From: Mustelus asterias
Lineage: Eukaryota
DNA length: 64,000 nt
Reading direction: 5' to 3'
Assembly (NCBI RefSeq): GCF_964213995.1
Contig: NC_135802.1
Coordinates: 118,110,001 to 118,174,000, forward strand
The number at the start of each line of letters is the position of its first letter. Positions within the stretch are counted from its first letter, which is position 1. A program made the translations under genes and the position numbers. The notes beneath the pieces are model-generated. The model searched no databases and was not told where the DNA came from. It worked only from the letters and a program-made list of their open reading frames with translations. Positions 1-56,324 of the stretch are shown here, piece after piece.

Positions 1-609
1 ACAAGACTACCCACTAATTTCATTAGAGGAGATTTAATTTTGGGATAAATAGGATCTTTGGGAATCAAGTGCCTTTAAATCTTAATATTACCTGTATTTG
101 TTTTTAACCGTAGTTATTTTCTATATTTCTATCCCGATTCTCAAAAAGCAGTCAATTTTAATACTCCTGTGCATAATTGTTTAAACCACTATTTATCACA
201 TTATGTAAAGTTTGAAAGATAAGAGATCCTAGTTTTGAAAGCTTCCATATATGGTTAGCTGAATCTATGAGATGCCACTTAGCCTGACTATTGACCACCT
301 TACTAACTGCTCAACCCAGTTGATGAACCCAGCAACCACAAGTCAGTTCGCTTGGTGGTGGAGATGCTTTGAGAAAATAATCTGGGACAAAATTGATTGC
401 CACTTGGAAAAATATAGTTTAATAAATGAAGCTCATGTTATTCAAGTTCAGTTTTAAGTTAAGAAGTAGACTGCATCTAGCTGTGGTGCTAACCCCGAGT
501 CAAAAACCCCTATGTCCATTCAGTATCTAGGCTCACACTTGAATAAAGATTTGAACGAGGCACTGAAAGGCAGTTCTACCTTTATCTTCCCAGTAAAGAG
601 TAAGGAGAT

Positions 610-890
610 GTGGTGACATGCTGACGTCACTGGACAAGTAATCCGGAAACCCAGTGTAATGCTCTGGGAACCTGAGTTTGAATCCCACCATGGCAGGTGT
701 TGGAATTTGAATTTGATTTAAAAATCTGGAATTAAAAGTCTAATGATGATCTATGGAACCAGTGTCAATTGTCGTTAAAAACCCATCTGGTTCACTAATG
801 TCCTTTAGGAAAGGAAATCTGTCATTACCTGGTCTGGACTAAATGTGACTCCAGACCCACAACAATGTGACCCTTAGCTGCCTTTTGCAA
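610..890 (+). mobile_element. Short tRNA-headed SINE-like copy matching the 5' end of the APE-RT LINE at 52326-56324
   Basis: ctggacaagtaatccgg anticodon-like arm; gagtttgaatccc B-box-like motif; then ggttcactaatgtcctttagg...gtgactccagacccaca shared with the long copies. Confidence 0.75.
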
Positions 891-955
891 TGAATAGGTG
901 GAGATCAGAGAGGGAAAAATGATGGTACAATTATTGTTTCATATTTTCATTTCAG

Positions 956-1014
956 GTGCATTCATTCCTGGAGTGCCTGTGCAACCTGTAGTCTTGCGTT
1001 ATCCCAATAAAATG
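956..1014 (+). CDS. LPCAT1: LPCAT1 coding exon (equivalent to human exon 6), GAFIPGVPVQPVVLRYPNKM
   Basis: ttttcatttcag acceptor and gtgagt donor; 59 nt; the peptide matches the recalled LPCAT1 acyltransferase motif GAFIPGxPVQPVVLRYPNK. Confidence 0.95.
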
Positions 1015-2471
1015 GTGAGTGTTTTATAAAATATGCGAAAAGCTGAATTTTTAAATCCACATTACATTTGTCATGATTACATTCTTAGTATCTGGTTATC
1101 TAACGTAAATTGTTATATCAAATCATTGTACGATTATATTTAAATAAGGTTTTACTAACTGAAATCTGTTTTGTCTGAGTATTTTTCTGAGCCCAGAAAA
1201 TGCCGTCCTTGATTCTTGGACGAGCATTGCCTATTTCATACTGAGAATCCATTGTGTGCGTCCACTTTAAAAAATATTGTTGTACGTTGCAAAATAGATA
1301 CGTGAAACATAATGTCCTAATTCTGTGTCCTAAAAAGCCCTAGAAAATGCACTATTTTATTAGGGTTTTCCCTAACTATGGGTTCTTTGCTAATTGGACT
1401 GAATCTTTCCACAGTCTTTCTACAGAGGCAGGTGAATAGACAGATGATTAATTCAGTATGTTTAGTTTTTGCATCCTTTTTCAGGTTTCCCAGGAACCCA
1501 AAATTCTAACAGTGCCTTAAACGTCCAGAAAATATATTTCATATATATTTTCAAAGGAAGCATACAAATGAAAGAAAAGTTGGATCCTATGGTAGCCCCA
1601 ACAACCAATAGTCCTTTCATGACTAAATAGTAAAATGAAGCCATCAAAAAAACAAAGGGGGTGATTTAATGGCCCCGTTTCACACAGTTGCAAATCTCGT
1701 TATGGCCAGAAAGTCTTGAGAAAGGACCATAATGGAATTTACACCAGGAGGATCTCACTCTCACTGCTGTCCCTCCCACCCCGACAAAGACATCATCAGG
1801 ATCATGCCCAACACGGGCATGAACCTGAATACCATTCATTTAAATGTATTTAAGTATTCAAAACCAGCTTAATTTAAACAAATTCTTTAAAAAGGCACCC
1901 CGATCTCCATGCGCATCACTTGCTGGTGTCTTCAGGCTCCACCCCTCACATTGAGGGTGCAAAATACACCCCCCGCTTTAAAATGGCAAAGTGTAAGAAT
2001 ATCTGGATGGAAATCCTGTTTCTTTGGGCAGTAACACACTGGTCTTCAGGACCTACACTTTTGCCATTTTTTGGGAAAATTCCACCCGAAGTATCACCAT
2101 ACAAGAGGAAAGGCTAAATTGGAATTTTACATTGGTTTGATCATGCAAGAGATCCTTGAGCATCAAAACAAAATAACAATCTTCATAAATGAGTAAGCAA
2201 CACCTGCCACCGTTCTTAAAAATATGAAAAATACAATTGTTCACAATTTTTGCTTAAGATTCTTTTTGCCTAAACCAGGTACACCATTTCCTACATTTTC
2301 CTTGGGTTCATGAATCACACCTGTAAAACCTTGTTCCCTACAATATTCAGAACAAAATCAATAAACTTAATCATTCCAGCTAAGCCCCGATCATACTAAG
2401 ATTGTCAGCCAGAGTAGACAAACCTCAGTGAAATAGAGTGAGAACACAATCAAGAAGGAACTCGGAACTTG

Positions 2472-2877
2472 AGTATTGCTGAAAAAAGGCACTTTGTTGA
2501 AGCTTTTTATTATGTACTCATCAGGGCGATAGCAACAATACCAATGTTAGAGAAGACAACAACTTTATACTGTATGAGAAGAGAGTGCTGAGTCGTTGGC
2601 AAGTGGATACTGAATTGAGAGTCCGAGAGAATGCACCAAATAATGATGACTGACAGTTAACTGCCAAACATTGTTTGAAAATTTTAAACCAGGCAGTTTG
2701 ATTCTGGTCACAGCATTGCCCTGAGGAGTAAAAAAGAGTCAACTCCCACTTCCCAACCAATCAGCACACTCTTCTCATTCCGTATAAAGTTGTTTCCCCA
2801 GCAATGGTATTCTTGTGATCATTCTGATGAATGCAAGATGAAAAACTTTGTCAAAATGTCTTTTTTTCAGCAATACT
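2472..2877. mobile_element. Non-autonomous element with ~135 bp inverted arms, each with a hammerhead-like motif (Penelope pLTR-like)
   Basis: 2472-2606 is the diverged reverse complement of 2746-2877; CTGATGA at 2824 (+) and 2518-2524 (-). Confidence 0.7.
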
Positions 2878-2960
2878 AAAGACATTTCTATTTGGTCCTT
2901 CACAAACAATCAAAGGGATTCTGATTGCTTTACTTACCTTAAAACAGGGGCTCAAGACAG

Positions 2961-3278
2961 AGTGGCATAGTGGCACAGTAGTTAGCACTGCTGCCTCACA
3001 GCGCCAGGGACCTGGGTTCGATTCCCGGCATGGGACACTGTCTGTGTGGAGTTTGCACATTCTCCCTGTGTCTGTGTGTGTGTGTTCTGGGTGCTCCGGT
3101 TCCCTCCCACAGTGCAAAGATGTGCGGGTTAGGTGGATTGGCCATGATAAATTGCCCCTTAGTGCCAGGGGGACACGCTAGGGTAAATGCATGGCGTAAT
3201 GGGAATAGGGCCGGGTGGGATTGTGGTCGGTGCAGACTCGATGGGCCGAATGGCCTCCTCCTGCATTCTATGATTCTA
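2961..3278 (+). mobile_element. HE1-type V-SINE with CR1-like tail
   Basis: tRNA head (tggcacagtagttagc, ggttcgattcc), V-domain tgtggagtttgcacattctcc, tail gatgggccgaatggcctc...ttctatgattct. Confidence 0.9.
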
Positions 3279-4019
3279 TACATTATCACAGAATATCCCC
3301 ACAATGTGCCAGACCTATAAGTTGCTTTTTGCCATATTGCCACACAAGAATCCCAATAGAGGTTCCTTGCCTTCTGTTTCAAACAAATTGTTCTCCTATT
3401 GCTTTTCCTTGGCACTTAAGGTTTTTAACTGTGTATTTGAATAATCACAATAAACAGCAGAATGCTGTGACTCCCATCTGTACATGAAGAGATATTATTT
3501 TCAAGTTCTAAGTTTGTTATTATACACGTCAAACTTTGGAGCATCATAAGACATGAAGTTCTAGGTTTTCCTTTTGTAAAATATTTTTTCAGCACAAGAA
3601 GCCATGCAATCAGTCACTTAGTCTCATTAGTCCCTTCCCCCTTATCTAAGCACTTATTTTTCTTATTTATTTCCCTTTAAAAAGCTGTATTGAATTTTGT
3701 TGTTTACTGTTTCTTGTAAAACATTCCATCTTCCAACAACTTCTTCCACATATATGTAAAAAGAAAATCCCATAATTTCTCCCTTTGTTGCTTTGATCAT
3801 GATAAATATGAACCACCTAGTTGTAAAAGCACTGATCAATGAAAATAAATTTCTCCTGTTTTATCAAAACTCCTTATAGTTACCAATCCATCAGATCTCT
3901 TCATAACCTTACATTCCGGTGGAGAAAAAGCTTCAACCTTGGTATTATCTTGGTAAATCTAATCTGCTTAAAGTTCACATTCTTCCCAAAACTAGACACC
4001 AATTTGATTTCAACTTTAC

Positions 4020-5839: not shown

Positions 5840-8690
5840 GGTTCAGTAATGTCCTTTAGAGAAAGCAAACTGCCACTCTTTCTTAGACTGGCCTACGTGT
5901 AACTCCAGACCCACAGCAATGTGGTTAACTCTTAGATGCCTTCTGAAATGACCCAGCAAGCCACTCGGGTGCATAAAACCATTACAAAGTCTGCAACAAA
6001 AAAAAAAACTGGATGGGCACCCTACATCAACCTAGGTGCTGGAAATGACAATGACACATCTAGCTCTGTCTACCCTGCAAAGTCCTCTTTTCTAACATAG
6101 AATCATAGAATCCTAGAGTGCAGAAGGAGGCCATTCAGCCCATCGAGTCTGCATTGACAATAATCCCATGCATGTGCCCCAGCTAGTCTCCCTGATACTA
6201 AAGGGCAATTTAGCATGGCCAATCCACCTAACCCGCACATCTGGGCGCTTATGCCAAAACTGGGAAAGATGTCCCACATACTAGTGAAGCAACAGCCCGA
6301 CATTGTCATACTTACAGAATTAATACCTTACAGATAATGTCCCGTGCACCATCATACCTGGATATATCCTGTCCCACCGACAATATTGATTTCGGATCCC
6401 ATTAAGGCTCATGCCATGAGGTTCAATTTGTCCAAGGAAACCTACTGCTGCTTGCCACCTACTGTCCCCCTCAACTGATGAGTGAGTACTTCTCCACATT
6501 GAACACCATTTGGAAGAAGCGTTGGGGGGGTGGCAAGGACACAGCGTGTACTCTGAGTGGGGCCTTCAACAAAAGTAGTTCGGCAGCACCACTGACTGAA
6601 CTGGCCAAGCCCTAAAGGACTGCTAGAGGTTGGAAATTGGTGGGGGAAATAACAAGAGGGAAAAACATACTTGACCTCATCCTCGCCAATCTACCTGTCA
6701 CACATGCATCTGTCCAAGACGATGTTGGTAGGAGTGACTACCACATAGTCTGGGGAGACAAAGCCCATTTTCACATTGAGGACATCTTCCATCATGCTAA
6801 ATGTGATGGATTTCAAACAGATCTAGCAACTCAAAACTGGGGCATCCATGAGGTTCTGTCAGCCATCATCTGCAGTAGCAGCAGAATTATATGCAACCAC
6901 AATCTGTAACCTCATGGCCTGTCATATCCCCACTCTACCATTCCCATCAAACCTGGTTCATTAAAAGGTGCAGGGGAGCATGACAGGAACAGTACCAGGC
7001 ATACCCAGATGAGGTGTTAATCTAGTGAAGTTACAAGGCAGCACTACTTGCATGCCAAACAACAAAGGCAGCAGGCAAACGACAGAGCTAACAATCCAAA
7101 AGCCAACAGATTAGGTCCAAGCACTGCAGCCCTGTCACATTCAGTCATCAATAGTGGTGCACACTAAAAGAACTAACTGGAAGCACAAACCTAGAAATGC
7201 AGTGACAGATCTGACCTGACCAATTATTGCCCCTTCACTTCTCTCTCAAGCATCAGCAAAGTAATAAAGTCTCATCGTAAGTGCTATCAAAAGGCATCTA
7301 CTCAGCATTAACCTGTTCACTGACCCCTAACCTGGGTTCCACTAGTGCCAGTCAGCTCCTAACTTCATTATACCCTTGGTCCAGACATGGACAAAGAGCT
7401 GTACTCGAGGTGAGTGACTGTCCTTGACATCAAGGCAGCATTTGGCTGTGTGTGGCAAGGAGCTCTTGCAAAACTGAAATCAATGGGAATCGAGTGAAGC
7501 TCTCCACTGTTTGGAGTTCATAGAATCGTAGAATCCCTACAGTGCAGAAGGAGACCATTTGGCCTATCGAGTTAAGACCAACAACAATCCCACCCAGGCC
7601 CTATCCCTGTAACCCCACATATTTATCCTGTTAATCCCCTGACAGTAAGGGGCAATTTAGCATGGCCAATCAACCTAACACACATACCTTTGGAGTTGCA
7701 CAAAGGAAAATGGTTGTTGGAGGTCAATCATCTCAGTCCTTGGACATCGCTGTGTGAGTTCCTCAGGATACTGTCTGCGGCCCAGCCATCTTCAGCTGTT
7801 TCATCAGTGACCTTTCCTCCATAAGATCAGAAGTGGGGATGTTTGCAGATGATTGTACAATGTTAACCATTTGCCACGCCTCAGCTTCTGAAAGTCTGTG
7901 CCGTATGCAGCAAGACCTAACAGCATAGATACTTGGACTTGTAATGGTAGATAACATTCATGCCACGCAAGTGCCAGGCAATTGCCATCTCCAGCAAGAG
8001 AGAATCGAAGCATCTTTCCTTGGCATTCAATGACATTGCTATCACTGAATCCCCCATTATCAACATTCTGAGGATTACCATTGACCAGAAACTTACTGGA
8101 CCAGCCTTATAAATACTGGGCTACAAGAGTAGGTCAGAGTCTGGAATTCTGCTGCGAGTAATTCATCTCTTGACTCCCCAAAGCCTGTCTACCATCTACA
8201 AGATACAAGTCAAGAGTGTGATGGAGTACTCTCCACTTGCTCAGATGAATACAGCTCCAATAACACTCAAGAAGCACAACATCATCCAGGGCAAAGCAGC
8301 CTGCTTCATTGGCACCCCATCTGTCCCTATCACTATTCACTCCCTGTGCAACCAACACACAGTGGCAGATGTGTTTACCAGCTATAAGATGCACTGCAGC
8401 AGCTTTCCATGGCTCGTTCAGCAGCACCTTCCAGACCCATGACCCCTACCACCTGGAAGGACAATGTCTGAACACCATCAACTGCAATTTCCTCTTCAAA
8501 CCACACGTCATCCTGATTTAGAACTATGTCACTGTTCCTTCACTGTCACTGGGTCAAAATCCTGGAATTCCCTAACAGCACTGTGGGTGTTCCTACAACA
8601 CATCGACTACAATGGTTCACGAAGGCAGTTTACCACCATCATCTGGAGGGCAATTAGCGATGGGTAATAAATACTGGCCGAACCAACAAC
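5840..8690 (+). mobile_element. Decayed APE-RT LINE (CR1-group-like, tRNA-head family), interrupted by SINE 3' fragments at ~6097-6240 and ~7518-7695 (-)
   Basis: APE motifs (PDIVILTE, NILDLILANL, GRSDYH), RT gtttgcagatgattgt (FADD), STIYKIQVKSVMEYS, 3' end gggcaattagcgatgggtaataaat. Confidence 0.85.
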
Positions 8691-31019: not shown

Positions 31020-32940
31020 TTTTAATTCATTTATGAGATACTGTGCCAGCATTTATTGCCCTTGAGAACATGGTGGTGAGCTGCTGCTTGAACCGCTGCA
31101 GTCCCTGTGGTGTAGGTACACCCACAGTGTGGTTAAGGAGGGAGAGACCCAGGATTTTGACCCAGCAACAATCAATGAACAGTGACATATTTCCAGGTCA
31201 GGATGGTGAGTGACTTGGAGGATTCCAGGTGGTGTTCCCATGTTTCTACTGCCCTTGTCCTTCTAGATGGTAGTCATCATGGGTTTGGAAGCTGCTGTCT
31301 AAAGAGCCTTGGTGAGTTCCTGTAGTGCATCTTGTAGGTGGTACACATTTCTTCCAATGTTCATCAGTGATGGAAGGAGTGAATATTTGTAGAAGGGGTG
31401 TCAATCAATTGGGCTGTGGTGTCAAGCTTCTTCAGTGTTGGAGTGGCAAGTGGAGAGTATTCCATCGCGTTCCTGATTTGTGCCTTGTAGATGATGGGCA
31501 GGCTTTGGGGAATCAGTAAACGAGTTACTCTCTGCAGGATCCCTAGCCTCTGACTTGTTCTCATAGCCATTGTATTTATATGGTCAGTCCAGTTAAGTTT
31601 CTGGGCAATGTTAACCCCCATGATGTTGCTAGAGGGGGAATTGAGCAATGGTAATGTTATTGAATGTCAAGAGTTAATGGTTAGATTCTCTCTTGTTGGA
31701 GATAGTCATTGCCTAGCACTTTTGTGGCGCAAACGTTACTTGCCACTTGTCCACACAAGCCTGAATGTTGTCCAGATCTTGCTGCATTTGGACATGGGCA
31801 ACTTCGGTATCTGAGGAGTCATGAATGGTGCTGAACATTTTACCAACATCCCCGCTTCTGACCTCCTAATGAAAGTAAGGTCATTAATGAAGCAGCTGAA
31901 GATGGTTGGGTCCAGGACTACCCTGAGGGCAGCACGGTGGTTAACACTGCTGCTTCACAGCTCCAGGGACCTGGGTTCGATTCCCGGCTTGGGTCGCTGT
32001 CTGTGTGGCGTTTGCACATTCTCCTCGTGTCTACGTGGGTTTCCTCCGCGTGCTCCGGTTTCCTCCCACAGTCCAAAGATGTGCGGGTTAGGTTGATTGG
32101 CCATGCTAAAAAAAAATTGCCCTCCGTGTCCTGAGATGTGTAGGTTAGAGGGATTAGTGGGTAAATCTGTAGGGATATGGGGGTAGGGCCTGGGTGGGAT
32201 TGTGGTCGGTGCAGACTCGATGGGCCGAATGGCCTCTTTCTGTACTGTAGGGTTTCTATGATTCTATGAACTCCTGCAGTGATGTTCTGGAACTGAGATC
32301 ATTGACCTCCAACAACCAGAACCACCATCTATCTTCCTTTGTGCCAGGTATGACTCCAACTAATGGAGAGTTCCCCCGCATGATTCCCATTGGCTCCAAT
32401 ATTGCTAGGACTCCTTGATGCTACACTCGGTCAAATGCTGCCTTGATGTCAAGGGCATTCACTTACCTTGTACAGCTCTTTTGTCCATGTCTGAACCAAG
32501 GTTGTATATAACGAGGTCAATAGAGAGTGACCCTGGTGGAACCCAAACAGATAGTCAGTGAGCCGGTTGTTGCTGAGCAAGTGCTGCATGATAGCATTGT
32601 TAATGACTCCTTCCATCACTTTACTGAGGATCAAGAGTGGACTGATAGGGCAGTAAATGGCTGGTTGGATCTGTGCTGTAGTTTGTGTACAGAATATCTC
32701 TAGGCAATCTTTCACATTACCACGTAGGTGCCTATGTTGTAGCTGGACTGGAACAGCATGGCTAGGGACATGGCAAATTCTGGAGCACAAGTCCTCAGTG
32801 CGGTTGCCAGAATATTGTCAAGGCCTTTGCTGTATTCAGTGCCTTGAGGTGTTTTTTGATATGTTGAATTGGTTAAAGACTGGCATCTGTGATGCTGAGG
32901 CCGAGATGGATCATCCACTTGACACTTCTGGCTGAAGGTT
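31020..32940 (-). mobile_element. Decayed APE-RT LINE (tRNA-head family), RT and 3' part, with an HE1 SINE at 31927-32268 (+)
   Basis: LRTCAPE, YCPISPLLILSKVMEGV, FGFHQGHS, IYKAQIRNAMEYS; 3' tail ttattgcccttgaga. Confidence 0.85.
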
Positions 32941-52325: not shown

Positions 52326-55300
52326 TTTTTTTTTCATTTGTGGGACATGGGCGTCACTGGCTGCCCATCCCTAGTTGCCCTTGAGAAGGTGGTGGTGAGC
52401 TGCCGCCTTGAATCGCTGTAGTCCATGATCTGTGGGTTGACCAACAATGCAGTTAGGGAGGGAATTCCAGGATTTTGACCCAGCGACTGTGAAGGAATGG
52501 TCATATATTTCCAAGTCAGGATGCTGAGTAGCTTAGAGAGGAACTTGCAAGTGGTGGTGTTCCCATGTATCTGCTGCCCTTGTCCTTCTAGATGGAAGTG
52601 GTCGTGGGTTTGGAAGATGCTGTCTAAGGATCTTTAGTGAATTGCTACAGTGCATCTTGTAGATTGTGCACACTGCTGCTACTGAGTGCTGGAGGGAATG
52701 GCACGGTGACGCAGTGGTTAGCACTGCTGAATCACAGCGCCAGGGACCCAGGTTCAATTCCGACTTCGGGTCACTGTTTGGAGTTCGCACATTCTCCCCG
52801 TGCCTGCGTGGGTTTCCTCCGGGTGCTCCAGTTTCCTCCCACAGTACAAAGATGTGCAGGTTAGGTGATTGACCATGCTAAATTGACCTTGGTGTCAGGG
52901 AATTATGGGGTTACGGGGAATAGGGCCTGGGTGGGATTGTGGTCGGTGCAGACTCAATGGGCTGAATGGCCTCCTTCTGCACTGTAGGGATTCTATGAGT
53001 GGATGTTTGTAGATATGGTGCCAATCAAGTAGGCTTCTTTGTCATGGGTGGTGTCAAGCTTCTTGGGTGTTGTTGGAACTACACCATCCAGGAAAGTGGG
53101 GAGTATTCCATCACACTCCTGATTTGTACCTTGTAGATGGTGAAGGCTTTGGGGAGTCAGGAGGTGAGTTACATGCCACAGTATTCCTAGCCTCTGACCT
53201 GCTGTTGTAGCCACTGTTGAGTTTCTGGTCAATGGTAACCCCAAGGATGTTGACAGTGGGGGATTCAGTGATGGTAACACCATTGAATGCCAGGGGGTGG
53301 TGGTTAGAGTGTCTTTTATTGGTGATGGTCTTTGTGTGGCGTGAATGTTACTTGCCACTTGTCAGCCGAAGACTGGATATTGTCCAAATCCTTTTGCCTC
53401 TGAGCATGAACTGCTTCAGTGTCTGAGGAGTCGTGAATGGTGCTGAACATTGTGCAATCGTCGGCGAACATCCCCACTTCTGACCTTATGGTGGAGGGAA
53501 GATCATTGATGAAGCAGCTGAAAATGGTTGGGCCTAGGACACTACCCTGAGGAACTGCTGCAGGGATGTCCTGGAGCTGATATCATTGACTCTCCACAAC
53601 TATCTTCCGATGTACCAGGTATGCTTGCAACCAGTGGTGAGTTTGCCTCCGATACGCATTGATTCCAATTTTATTAGGGCTCCTTGTTGCCACACTGGGT
53701 CGAGTGCGGCCTTGTTGTCAAGAGCTGTCACACTCACTTCACATTGGGAATTCAGTTCTTTCATCCATGTTTGAACCAAGGCTGTAATGAGGTCAAGAGC
53801 TGAGTGACCCTGGTGAAACCCAAATTGGACATCTCTGAGCAGGTGCTGCTTGATAGCACAGTTGTTGACCTGTTCCATCACTTTATTGATGATTGAGAGT
53901 AGACTGGGTGATAATTGACTGCATTGGATTTGTCCTGGTTTTTGTGCACAGGACATACCTGGGCAATTTTCCACTTTGTTGGGTAGATGCCAGTGTTGTA
54001 ACTGGGCTGGAAGAGCTTGGGCTAGAGGAGCAGCAGGTTCTGGAGCACAAGTCTTCAGTACTATTGCTGGAGTGTCATCAGGGCCCATTGACTTTGCAGT
54101 ATCCAGTGCCTCCAACCATTTCTTGATATATGGAGTAAATCAAATTGGCTGGAGACTGGCATCTGAGATGTTGGGGACCACTGGAGGAGGCCAAGATGGA
54201 TCATCCACTTGGCACTTGTGGCTGAAGATTGCTGCGAATGCTTCAGCCTTATCTTTTGCACTATGTGCTGGGCTTCTCCACAATTGAGGTTGGGGATATT
54301 TGTGAAGCCTCCTCCACCAGTGAGTTGTTTAATTGTCCACCACCATTTATGAGGGATGTGGCAGGACTGCAGAGCTTAGATCTGATCCGTTGGTTGTGGG
54401 ATCGCTTAGTTCTGTCTATCACTTGCTGTTTATACCATTTAGCATGCAAGTAGTCCTGTTTTGTAGCTTCACCAGGTTGACACGTCATTTTTAGGTATGC
54501 CTGGTGCTGCTTCTGGCATGCCCTCCTGCACTCTCCATTGAGCCAGGGTTGATCCCCTGGCTTGATGGTAATGGTTGAGTGGGGATTATGCTGGGCCATG
54601 AGGTTGCAGATTGTGCTGGAGTACAGTTCCACTGCTGTTGATGGTGCACAGCCATCATTTGAAGTGCACACCAACTTGTTAAGATGCTAAGACTACTTGA
54701 AGAAACGAGCTATTATACTTCGGTGAAGATCTAAAGCAGAAGTCATCTTGCAACAATTCCTTATAGGAACTTGATGTGTGAAATATTGTCTGCTATATAC
54801 TTTATAGTACTTGGAAAGTACTATGGATGCCCAGTCTTGAGTTGCTAGATCTATTCGAAGTCTGTTCCATTTAGCATGGTGATAGTGCCACACAACACGA
54901 TGGGGGTTATTTCCAGTGTGAAGGCGTGAGTTCGTCTCCACAAGGACTGCGTGGTGGTCACTGTTACCAATACTGTCATAGAAAGGTGCATCTCCAGCTG
55001 GCAGATTTGTAAGATGAGGTCAAGTATGTTATTTCCTCTTGGTTCCTTCACCACCTGCTGCAGACCCAGTCTAGTAGTTATATCCTTTAGGACCTGACCA
55101 GCTCGATCAGTAGTGCTGCTGCTGAGCCACTCTTGGTGATCGACATTGAAATCCCCCACCCAGAGTACATTTTCCACCCATGCCACCCTCAGCTTCCTAT
55201 AAGTGTTGTTCAACATGGAAGAGTACTTCATCAGCTGAAGGAGGACGGTACGTGGTAACCAGTAGGATGTTTCCTTGCCCATGTTTAACCTGAAGCCATG

Positions 55301-56324
55301 AGACTTCATGGGGTCCAGAGTCAATGTTAAGCACTCCCAGGGCAATTCTCTCCTGACTATATACCACTGTACCTCCACCTCTGCTGGGTCTGTCCTGCCG
55401 GTGGGACAGGACATAACCAGGGCTGGGAATGGTGGTGTCTGGGTTGTTATCTGTATGATTCCGTGAGAATGACTATGTCAGGCTTGACTAGCCTGTGAGA
55501 CAGCTCTCCCAATTTTGGCACTAGCCTCCAGATGTTTGTAAGGAGGACTTTGCAGGGTCGACAGGGCTTTTTTGTTTTGCCATTATCTTTTCCGGTGCTT
55601 AGGTTGATGTCAGGAGGTCAGTCCGGTTTCATTTCTTTGTTGAGACGTTGCACTGATTGATACAACTGAGTGGCTTGGTGGGCCATTTCAGAGGCCAGTT
55701 GAGAGTCAACCACATTGCTATGGCTCTGGGGTTACATGTAGGCCAGACCAGGTAATGATGGCAGATTTCCTACCCCAAAGGACATTAGGGCAGCATGGTA
55801 GCACAGTGGTTAGCACTGCTGCTTCACAGCTCCAGGGACCTGGGTTCGATTCCCGGCTCGGGTCACTGTCTGTGTGGAGTTTGCACATTCTCCTCATGTC
55901 TGCGTGGGTTTCCTCCGGGTGCTCCGGTTTCCTCCCACAGTCCAAAGGTGTGCGGGTTAGGTTGATTGACCGTGCTAAAGATTGCCCCTTAGTGTCCTGA
56001 GATGCGCAGGTTAGAGGGATTAGCAGGTGAATATGGGGGTAGAGCCTGGGTGGGATTGTGGTCAGTACAGACTCGATGGGCCAAATGGCCTCTTTCTGTA
56101 CTGTAGGGTTTCTATGATTTCTATGATAGTGAACCAGATCGGTTTTTCTGACAATTGACAATGGTTTCATGGTCATTTGTCGACTCTTAATTCCAGACTC
56201 TTTTTTTAACTGAATTCAAATTCCACTACCTGCTGTGGTGGGATTCAAACCCGGGTCCCCAAACAATCAACTGAGTTTCTGGAATAATAGTCCAGCGATA
56301 ATACCACTAGGCCATCGCCTCCCC
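52326..56324 (-). mobile_element. Near full-length decayed APE-RT LINE with a tRNA-derived 5' head and no ORF1; HE1 SINEs inserted at 52698-52997 and 55787-56127 (+)
   Basis: Head GGGGAGGCGATGGCCTAGTGG...GGTTTGAATCC; VLWVGDFNV, NILDLIL, LKTCAPE, QFGFHQGHS, ALDNKAA, atgttcgccgacgat (FADD); A-tail at 52326-52334. Confidence 0.9.

Follow-up and report, generated by a model that had tools for sequence, protein, structure and literature searches.

A tRNA-type head on the elasmobranch Zenon LINE suggests transcription by RNA polymerase III

The element at 52326..56324 on the minus strand of the window, the whole 64,000-nucleotide stretch of Mustelus asterias DNA analysed here, is by sequence comparison a copy of the abundant elasmobranch Zenon LINE of the CR1 group. 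Elasmobranch Zenon is probably an autonomous LINE that RNA polymerase III (Pol III) transcribes from a tRNA-type head, a reading suggested by the combination of its own copying enzymes, a tRNA-type promoter and a lack of T-runs, which together make a Pol III-transcribed protein-coding element likely. Throughout the family the genuine 5' end is the tRNA head, and ORF1 is absent. In the textbook division, LINEs are coding elements transcribed by Pol II and SINEs are non-coding elements transcribed by Pol III; a LINE with transcription from a tRNA promoter would no longer fit this division.

The window copy and its head

We compared the family consensus with the window by blastn. The results showed that the window copy is collinear with the consensus (nt 2-196 = 56324-56127; nt 194-1178 = 55788-54823; nt 1184-2903 = 54652-52997; nt 2899-3293 = 52700-52326), with 87-90% identity by block and about 88% overall, and that a pair of inserted SINEs and a 170-nt insertion interrupt it. 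The features of this copy, followed by the older copies in the window, are as follows.

52326..56324, minus strand: the whole decayed Zenon element, spanning nt 2-3293 of the consensus (placed by blastn of the family consensus against the window)
56230..56324, minus strand: probable tRNA-derived head with an extra hairpin between the boxes (box positions, tRNA alignment, old-copy comparison)
56304..56314, minus strand: Pol III A box (letters on the minus strand)
56279..56295, minus strand: anticodon-like hairpin CTGGA-ctattat-TCCAG (letters on the minus strand)
56241..56251, minus strand: Pol III B box, one change from the family consensus (letters and consensus)
56127..56229, minus strand: first part of the 5' UTR, in common with the SINE (consensus alignment)
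55789..56126, plus strand: later SINE insertion, orientation opposite to the LINE (many window matches; missing in other LINE copies)
55688..55788, minus strand: second part of the 5' UTR; the stretch common to the most frequent SINE forms ends here
55630..55632, minus strand: conserved AUG (consensus nt 350), preceded by a leader rich in A and shifted by one frame from that of APE
54880..55550, minus strand: APE endonuclease region with stops and frameshifts (tblastn; Pfam PF14529/PF03372 on a sister copy)
54653..54822, strand not assigned: 170-nt foreign insertion, 87% identical to one other genome locus
53225..54095, minus strand: reverse transcriptase (RT) region, frameshifted (consensus mapping; Pfam PF00078 on a sister copy)
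52701..52996, plus strand: second SINE insertion, same kind as 55789..56126
52326..52604, minus strand: 3' UTR with a short A tail; last ~75 nt in common with the SINE; the consensus end has AATAAA
627..892, plus strand: short ORF-less older copy that covers consensus nt 28-298 (head and UTR) and shows an AGT anticodon loop
5839..8679, plus strand: older LINE copy, 72-79% identical to the consensus, 5'-truncated at consensus nt 187, headless
31056..32940, minus strand: older 5'-truncated LINE copy (consensus nt 1608-3230)

The A box (56314-56304), hairpin (56295-56279) and B box (56251-56241) lie on the minus strand where the initial annotation had placed them, and the B box of this copy deviates by one C-to-T change from the family sequence. 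We take the two boxes to be A and B boxes from the general Pol III box consensus, and the SINE inserted at 55789..56126 is presumably HE1. The reported short distance from head to APE was confirmed, with APE starting about 350 nt past the B box once the insertion is removed, and there is indeed no room for an ORF1, the longest AUG frame upstream of APE being 36 codons. Several stops and frameshifts indicate that the window copy is a dead element. Its head carries SINE-type letters at diagnostic sites, as in a minority of LINE copies, and judged from these letters this single copy could be a SINE-LINE chimera. The copy at 5840-8690, which had been cited as an independent example, has the UTR-to-APE junction but starts at consensus nt 187 without the head, so the head linkage rests on genome-wide copies.

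Two further observations concern the window. The lone match of the 170-nt insertion (L301:1505-1650) sits on another chromosome-scale contig, and the insertion is probably templated. At 955-1017 on the plus strand there is an apparent coding exon with splice sites, which we presume to resemble an LPCAT-type acyltransferase.

We aligned the head to a panel of tRNAs from the same genome, 51 different sequences that cover about eight isotypes. In this incomplete panel Thr(AGT) scored best (z 5.8) and Val reached 4.5, in line with the Thr-AGT origin first suggested from the loop, and an AGT anticodon loop is present in older copies and in the window copy at 627. Based on the A and B boxes and this alignment, the head is probably tRNA-derived and related to Thr(AGT). 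ARAGORN and Rfam called no tRNA in the head or UTR, and Rfam called no ribozyme at the 8 loci examined. A hairpin of ~19 nt is inserted between the A and B boxes. The A box starts at consensus nt 12, its usual placement in tRNA-type promoters, and the genomic 5' ends inferred from insertions fall at nt 1-6, which gives the spacing of about 10 nt ahead of the A box that characterises Pol III type-2 promoters. The LINE thus shares the tRNA-derived A/B-box head of SINE2 elements; their other feature, being short and non-coding, is absent from the 3.3-kb APE-RT LINE and found only in its ~360-bp derivatives. Separately, we observed long tandem arrays of Lys and Thr tRNA genes with ~1.8-kb spacing and anticodon variants (L100-L129; contig C16, 97.2-98.6 Mb).

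Family architecture, 3' end and derived SINEs

We searched the genome assembly (3.68 Gb, 5,313 contigs) for the UTR-APE junction and fetched all 39 places, among 40 listed, other than the window copy. The first 40 nt of the head were reached by 27 of these 39 junction-anchored copies, and 12 (two being duplicates) were truncated at nt 156-267. Against selection bias, we also fetched 40 of 150 RT matches, near rank order. Their 5' starts fell at nt 1-6 in 11 copies, at nt 106-263 in three, at nt 332-347 in two and within the ORF in 24; among the 16 copies reaching nt 450, 11 begin at nt 1-6. No pair of RT-anchored copies had a common upstream flank at the 5' end. The pile-up at nt 1-6 with unrelated flanks indicates that the head is the 5' end, with no ORF1-like sequence upstream. 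The head is therefore collinear with APE-RT in 27/39 junction-anchored and 11/40 RT-anchored copies, and an ORF1 upstream of the head, named beforehand as the finding that would speak against this architecture, did not appear, since none of the 40 RT-anchored copies extends past the head. Older copies (72-81% identity) also carry it.

It is scarcely credible that the head and LINE were joined by chance or as a one-off chimera of a SINE with a truncated LINE. Head-bearing SINEs are very common and the head letters of the window copy are of SINE type, but the same junction from head to APE recurs in dozens of copies at unlinked places and in five further species, which supports the initial view of a family architecture. 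For the family, these recurrent junctions rule out chance juxtaposition.

A consensus built from 18 copies spans 3,297 nt and contains a single stop-to-stop frame of 902 codons. Pfam analysis of two sister copies showed APE (PF14529/PF03372) and RVT_1 (PF00078) and no other domain. The fetched copies average 93% identity to the consensus, and the 150 RT matches include no intact ORF, the longest open frame being 632 aa; the family therefore looks inactive in the Mustelus asterias genome. A target-site duplication search found a 14-bp repeat in 1 of 27 full-length copies, the others equalling a shuffled null (6.9 vs 6.8).

Recurrent 5' truncation was observed near consensus nt 188-196 at nine loci and at nt 263 at two loci; it could reflect hairpins that stall RT, a site of processing or an additional start. 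Protein matches of the repeat family came from sharks and rays, where seven gene models include LINE ORF fragments, probably as annotation artefacts.

At the 3' end, AATAAA lies ~55 nt ahead of the consensus end and a poly-A tail is present, as is characteristic of Zenon. We looked for the built-in T terminator that follows AATAAA in T+ SINEs: four or more T precede the A run at 19 of 71 ends, whereas an internal A run gave 4 of 69 and the background is 13%. The 3' consensus has one T only before the A run, and the length of T plus A is ~10 throughout, as later mutation would give. The ends with these T, 27% of those of LINE and SINE copies, read T4-6 ahead of the A run at constant total length, which suggests conversion of A to T in the direction of a TnAn palindrome, or else polyadenylation combined with termination by Pol III at varying places. 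Some Pol III SINE transcripts are described as polyadenylated via AATAAA in the available part of PMC10572872.

A SINE of ~360 bp consists of the first ~295 nt and last ~75 nt of the LINE. In the head search, all 29 other fetched loci were short SINE-type copies, none continuing into APE, indicating that most genomic heads sit outside LINEs; over all fetched loci there were 40 SINE-type and 49 LINE-type heads, which is not the genomic ratio. The deletion measures 2926 nt in 9/40 SINE copies, 2928-2929 in 14/40 and 2902-2903 in 6/40, and some deleted copies retain 5' sequence to nt 327 or ~440. There are several junctions, and some of them retain more of the LINE than the shortest SINE does; the SINE accordingly looks like a product of repeated internal LINE deletions. 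Four diagnostic sites separate most LINE heads from those of the SINE. Of the SINE-LINE hybrid reading in the initial annotation, the head as the family 5' end stands, but capture from a SINE is less well supported, since the SINE looks LINE-derived and the direction may have been the opposite; the head may first have come to the LINE from a tRNA or from a more ancient SINE. If true, SINE formation by internal LINE deletion would reverse the usual SINE-birth model and provide a second route to SINEs, deletion within a LINE already holding the promoter. Two loci (L253:1315-1915 and L261:1323-1902) share a longer internal deletion, from ~nt 440 to 3140, possibly representing a further non-autonomous family of ~600 bp. 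Contigs from presumed-RNA sequencing runs contain mainly the SINE part and are uninformative on start, strand and polymerase.

Terminator avoidance, transcription and translation

The sense strand of the 3,297-nt consensus contains no run of four or more T (T4) and six runs of three T, compared with 51, 45 and 39 runs of three or more A, C and G, respectively. Base shuffling predicted 4.5 T4 runs (P(0)=0.008), and a uniform synonymous-codon shuffle gave P(0)=0.003; with the element's own codons 2.3 were expected and the absence was not significant (P(0)=0.065). Runs of three or more T in the ORF numbered 4 against 11.8 in synonymous-codon shuffles (P=0.0004). The real, decayed copies have 46 T4 runs in 207 kb, or 0.22 per kb, compared with 3.9-5.8 per kb in control CR1 ORFs of the same genome (4 of 38 copies) and 2.0-3.2 per kb in a control family of equal T content (20%; 4 of 10 copies), which we take to be Tx1/L1-like from a motif. 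Neither control was under its own shuffle for runs of three or more T. The Tx1/L1-like family is young: intact frames of 1304 codons are numerous, and many of its copies lie on small contigs and are almost identical (e.g. L276, L285, L295).

These results support avoidance of Pol III terminators by the sense strand of the LINE, which is the main, though indirect, evidence that the promoter served the whole RNA. Published hagfish and coelacanth Zenon show several T4 runs by eye in their first 400 letters; because the comparison with headless Zenon covers this stretch only, T-run poverty may be a general Zenon trait rather than the result of Pol III selection.

We propose that TFIIIC would bind the A and B boxes, and that Pol III would start ~11 nt ahead of the A box, read through 3.3 kb because terminators have been selected against, and stop at the first T-run past the A tail. 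The resulting single long RNA would be translated without a cap, probably via recoding, with the protein made either from the conserved nt-350 AUG, after which a -1 shift would lead into the frame of APE, or by initiation at a codon other than AUG. This protein would copy its own RNA by target-primed reverse transcription, and internal deletions would yield ready-made SINEs because the promoter and the 3' recognition end are both retained. An mRNA of 3.3 kb far exceeds the usual length of Pol III products, which counts against the Pol III reading, as does the location of most genomic heads outside LINEs.

We consider it rather unlikely that the head is fixed but non-functional or re-used, with its boxes mattering for SINEs only and Pol II transcribing the LINE from an internal or flanking promoter. 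BovB-type and other LINEs do acquire foreign 5' pieces, an AATAAA lies near the consensus end, and a capped RNA would be easier to translate. LINEs are also generally regarded as Pol II transcripts, as stated in the available portion of Kojima 2018 (PMC5786205). However, Pol II transcription leaves unexplained the lack of T-runs over 3.3 kb relative to the controls, the 5'-end pile-up just upstream of the A box and, in the published starts of the consensuses, the two boxes that sharks and a ray have kept; a scanning ribosome would, moreover, encounter nine AUGs upstream of nt 350. A mixed mode, in which head-bound Pol III factors recruit or place transcription while Pol II or host read-through makes the coding RNA, both polymerases sharing one start, appears improbable: the 5' ends that recur around nt 188-196 and 263 point to a possible additional start or site of processing, but RT stalls at hairpins can explain them, and the 8 loci contain no Rfam ribozyme.

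The first in-frame AUG lies at nt 838, deep within the endonuclease, and the consensus has none ahead of the endonuclease; upstream of nt 350 there are nine AUGs with short frames. The nt-350 AUG follows an A-rich leader and opens a 36-codon frame that overlaps the APE start, one frame off. By eye, all five species of sharks and rays show this AUG in their published consensus starts, and its relative frame in the ray is unchanged. It is retained in 59/67 young and 7/13 old copies. When old subfamilies are compared with young ones, the most frequent net length change is +1 upstream of the nt-350 AUG and -3 downstream (each in 7/13 old copies), so that frame is preserved only from the AUG onward. 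Five of six differences between the ray consensus start and Mustelus, again by eye, fall at third positions of the AUG frame. Shared variants at nt 353-430, compared for coding constraint on the AUG frame, whose wobble site there coincides with APE codon position 1, are noisily distributed over APE positions 1/2/3 as 9/6/4, compared with 14/7/16 in APE. No canonical slippery site was evident at the overlap of the AUG and APE frames. A -1 shift from the nt-350 AUG is weakly favoured over a non-AUG start.

Taken jointly, and only tentatively, elasmobranch Zenon may be the first autonomous protein-coding Pol III retrotransposon, with a 3.3-kb uncapped RNA, terminators purged since the shark-ray split, a conserved AUG with programmed frameshift, and SINEs arising by internal deletion. 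If true, it would be a natural example of a translated long Pol III RNA. R2 retrotransposons are single-ORF LINEs that use a polymerase other than Pol II and whose uncapped RNA is translated. R2 rides on the Pol I rRNA transcript, from which an HDV-like ribozyme releases its 5' end, whereas Rfam found no ribozyme in the 8 shark LINE loci.

Zenon and other known relatives

The available parts of Stuart et al. 2026 (PMC13343379) describe Zenon from sharks, rays, hagfish and coelacanth as invariably lacking ORF1 and ending in a poly-A tail, and state that elasmobranch Zenon had previously not been deposited in any repeat repository. Their RhiTyp_Zenon-1, CarCar_Zenon-1, ScyCan_Zenon-1, SquAca_Zenon-1 to -3 and HypSab_Zenon-1 belong to the same family as the window LINE. 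Within the first 400 letters, read by eye without program alignment, all seven elasmobranch consensuses (five species) start with an A/B-box head and are nearly identical to the Mustelus consensus, and hagfish and coelacanth Zenon show no such head. The published elasmobranch -1 families are 3.24-3.31 kb long. The main text of PMC13343379 has no mention of tRNA, promoter or polymerase III, and its supplement none of tRNA; in these parts, the head, T-run avoidance, the missing start codon and the derived SINEs are undiscussed. The absence of ORF1 is therefore already known for Zenon, and the tRNA head and terminator avoidance go unremarked in these parts. The ORF1-less architecture that the initial annotation considered unusual is real but not novel, being the rule in Zenon.

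In a quick RT tree, built after removing 27 proteins with too little RT and three more without a match and including no named Zenon reference, the family fell in a 28-row group with a Parnassius protein (SH-aLRT 94) and shark CR1 in a separate group (SH-aLRT 99). The available part of a whale shark preprint merely names CR1-Zenon, and nothing on elasmobranch Zenon was found in the parts consulted of PMC5499810, PMC6685494, PMC10294476, PMC11481361 and PMC7245038. The titles and abstract openings found, a scope outside Repbase, Dfam and subscription journals, contain no claim of a Pol III-driven or tRNA-headed autonomous LINE.

As far as the consulted sections describe it, lepidopteran Zenon (Wang et al. 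2019, PMC6740152) resembles the shark LINE in its length of 3.1-3.7 kb, single ORF and poly-A end. Its internal-deletion derivative Persaeus likewise shows that short derivatives with both ends recur, as in the shark; unlike the shark elements, Persaeus, with its Zenon 5' end, is described there without tRNA homology or a Pol III promoter. RTE-1_DAn and relatives (Kojima 2018, PMC5786205) are LINEs with a tRNA-like sequence matching many SINE2 elements; they differ in belonging to the RTE clade, and the portion consulted makes no Pol III claim and leaves the position and function of the tRNA-like part unstated. The bipartite SINEs Bov-tA, AfroSINE, CoeSINE4 and SINE2-1_EBu (PMC5786205, PMC7245038, in part) combine a tRNA head with 5' and 3' LINE parts. 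In those SINEs, as described there, the head is joined to a deleted LINE, whereas in shark Zenon it sits on the autonomous LINE itself.
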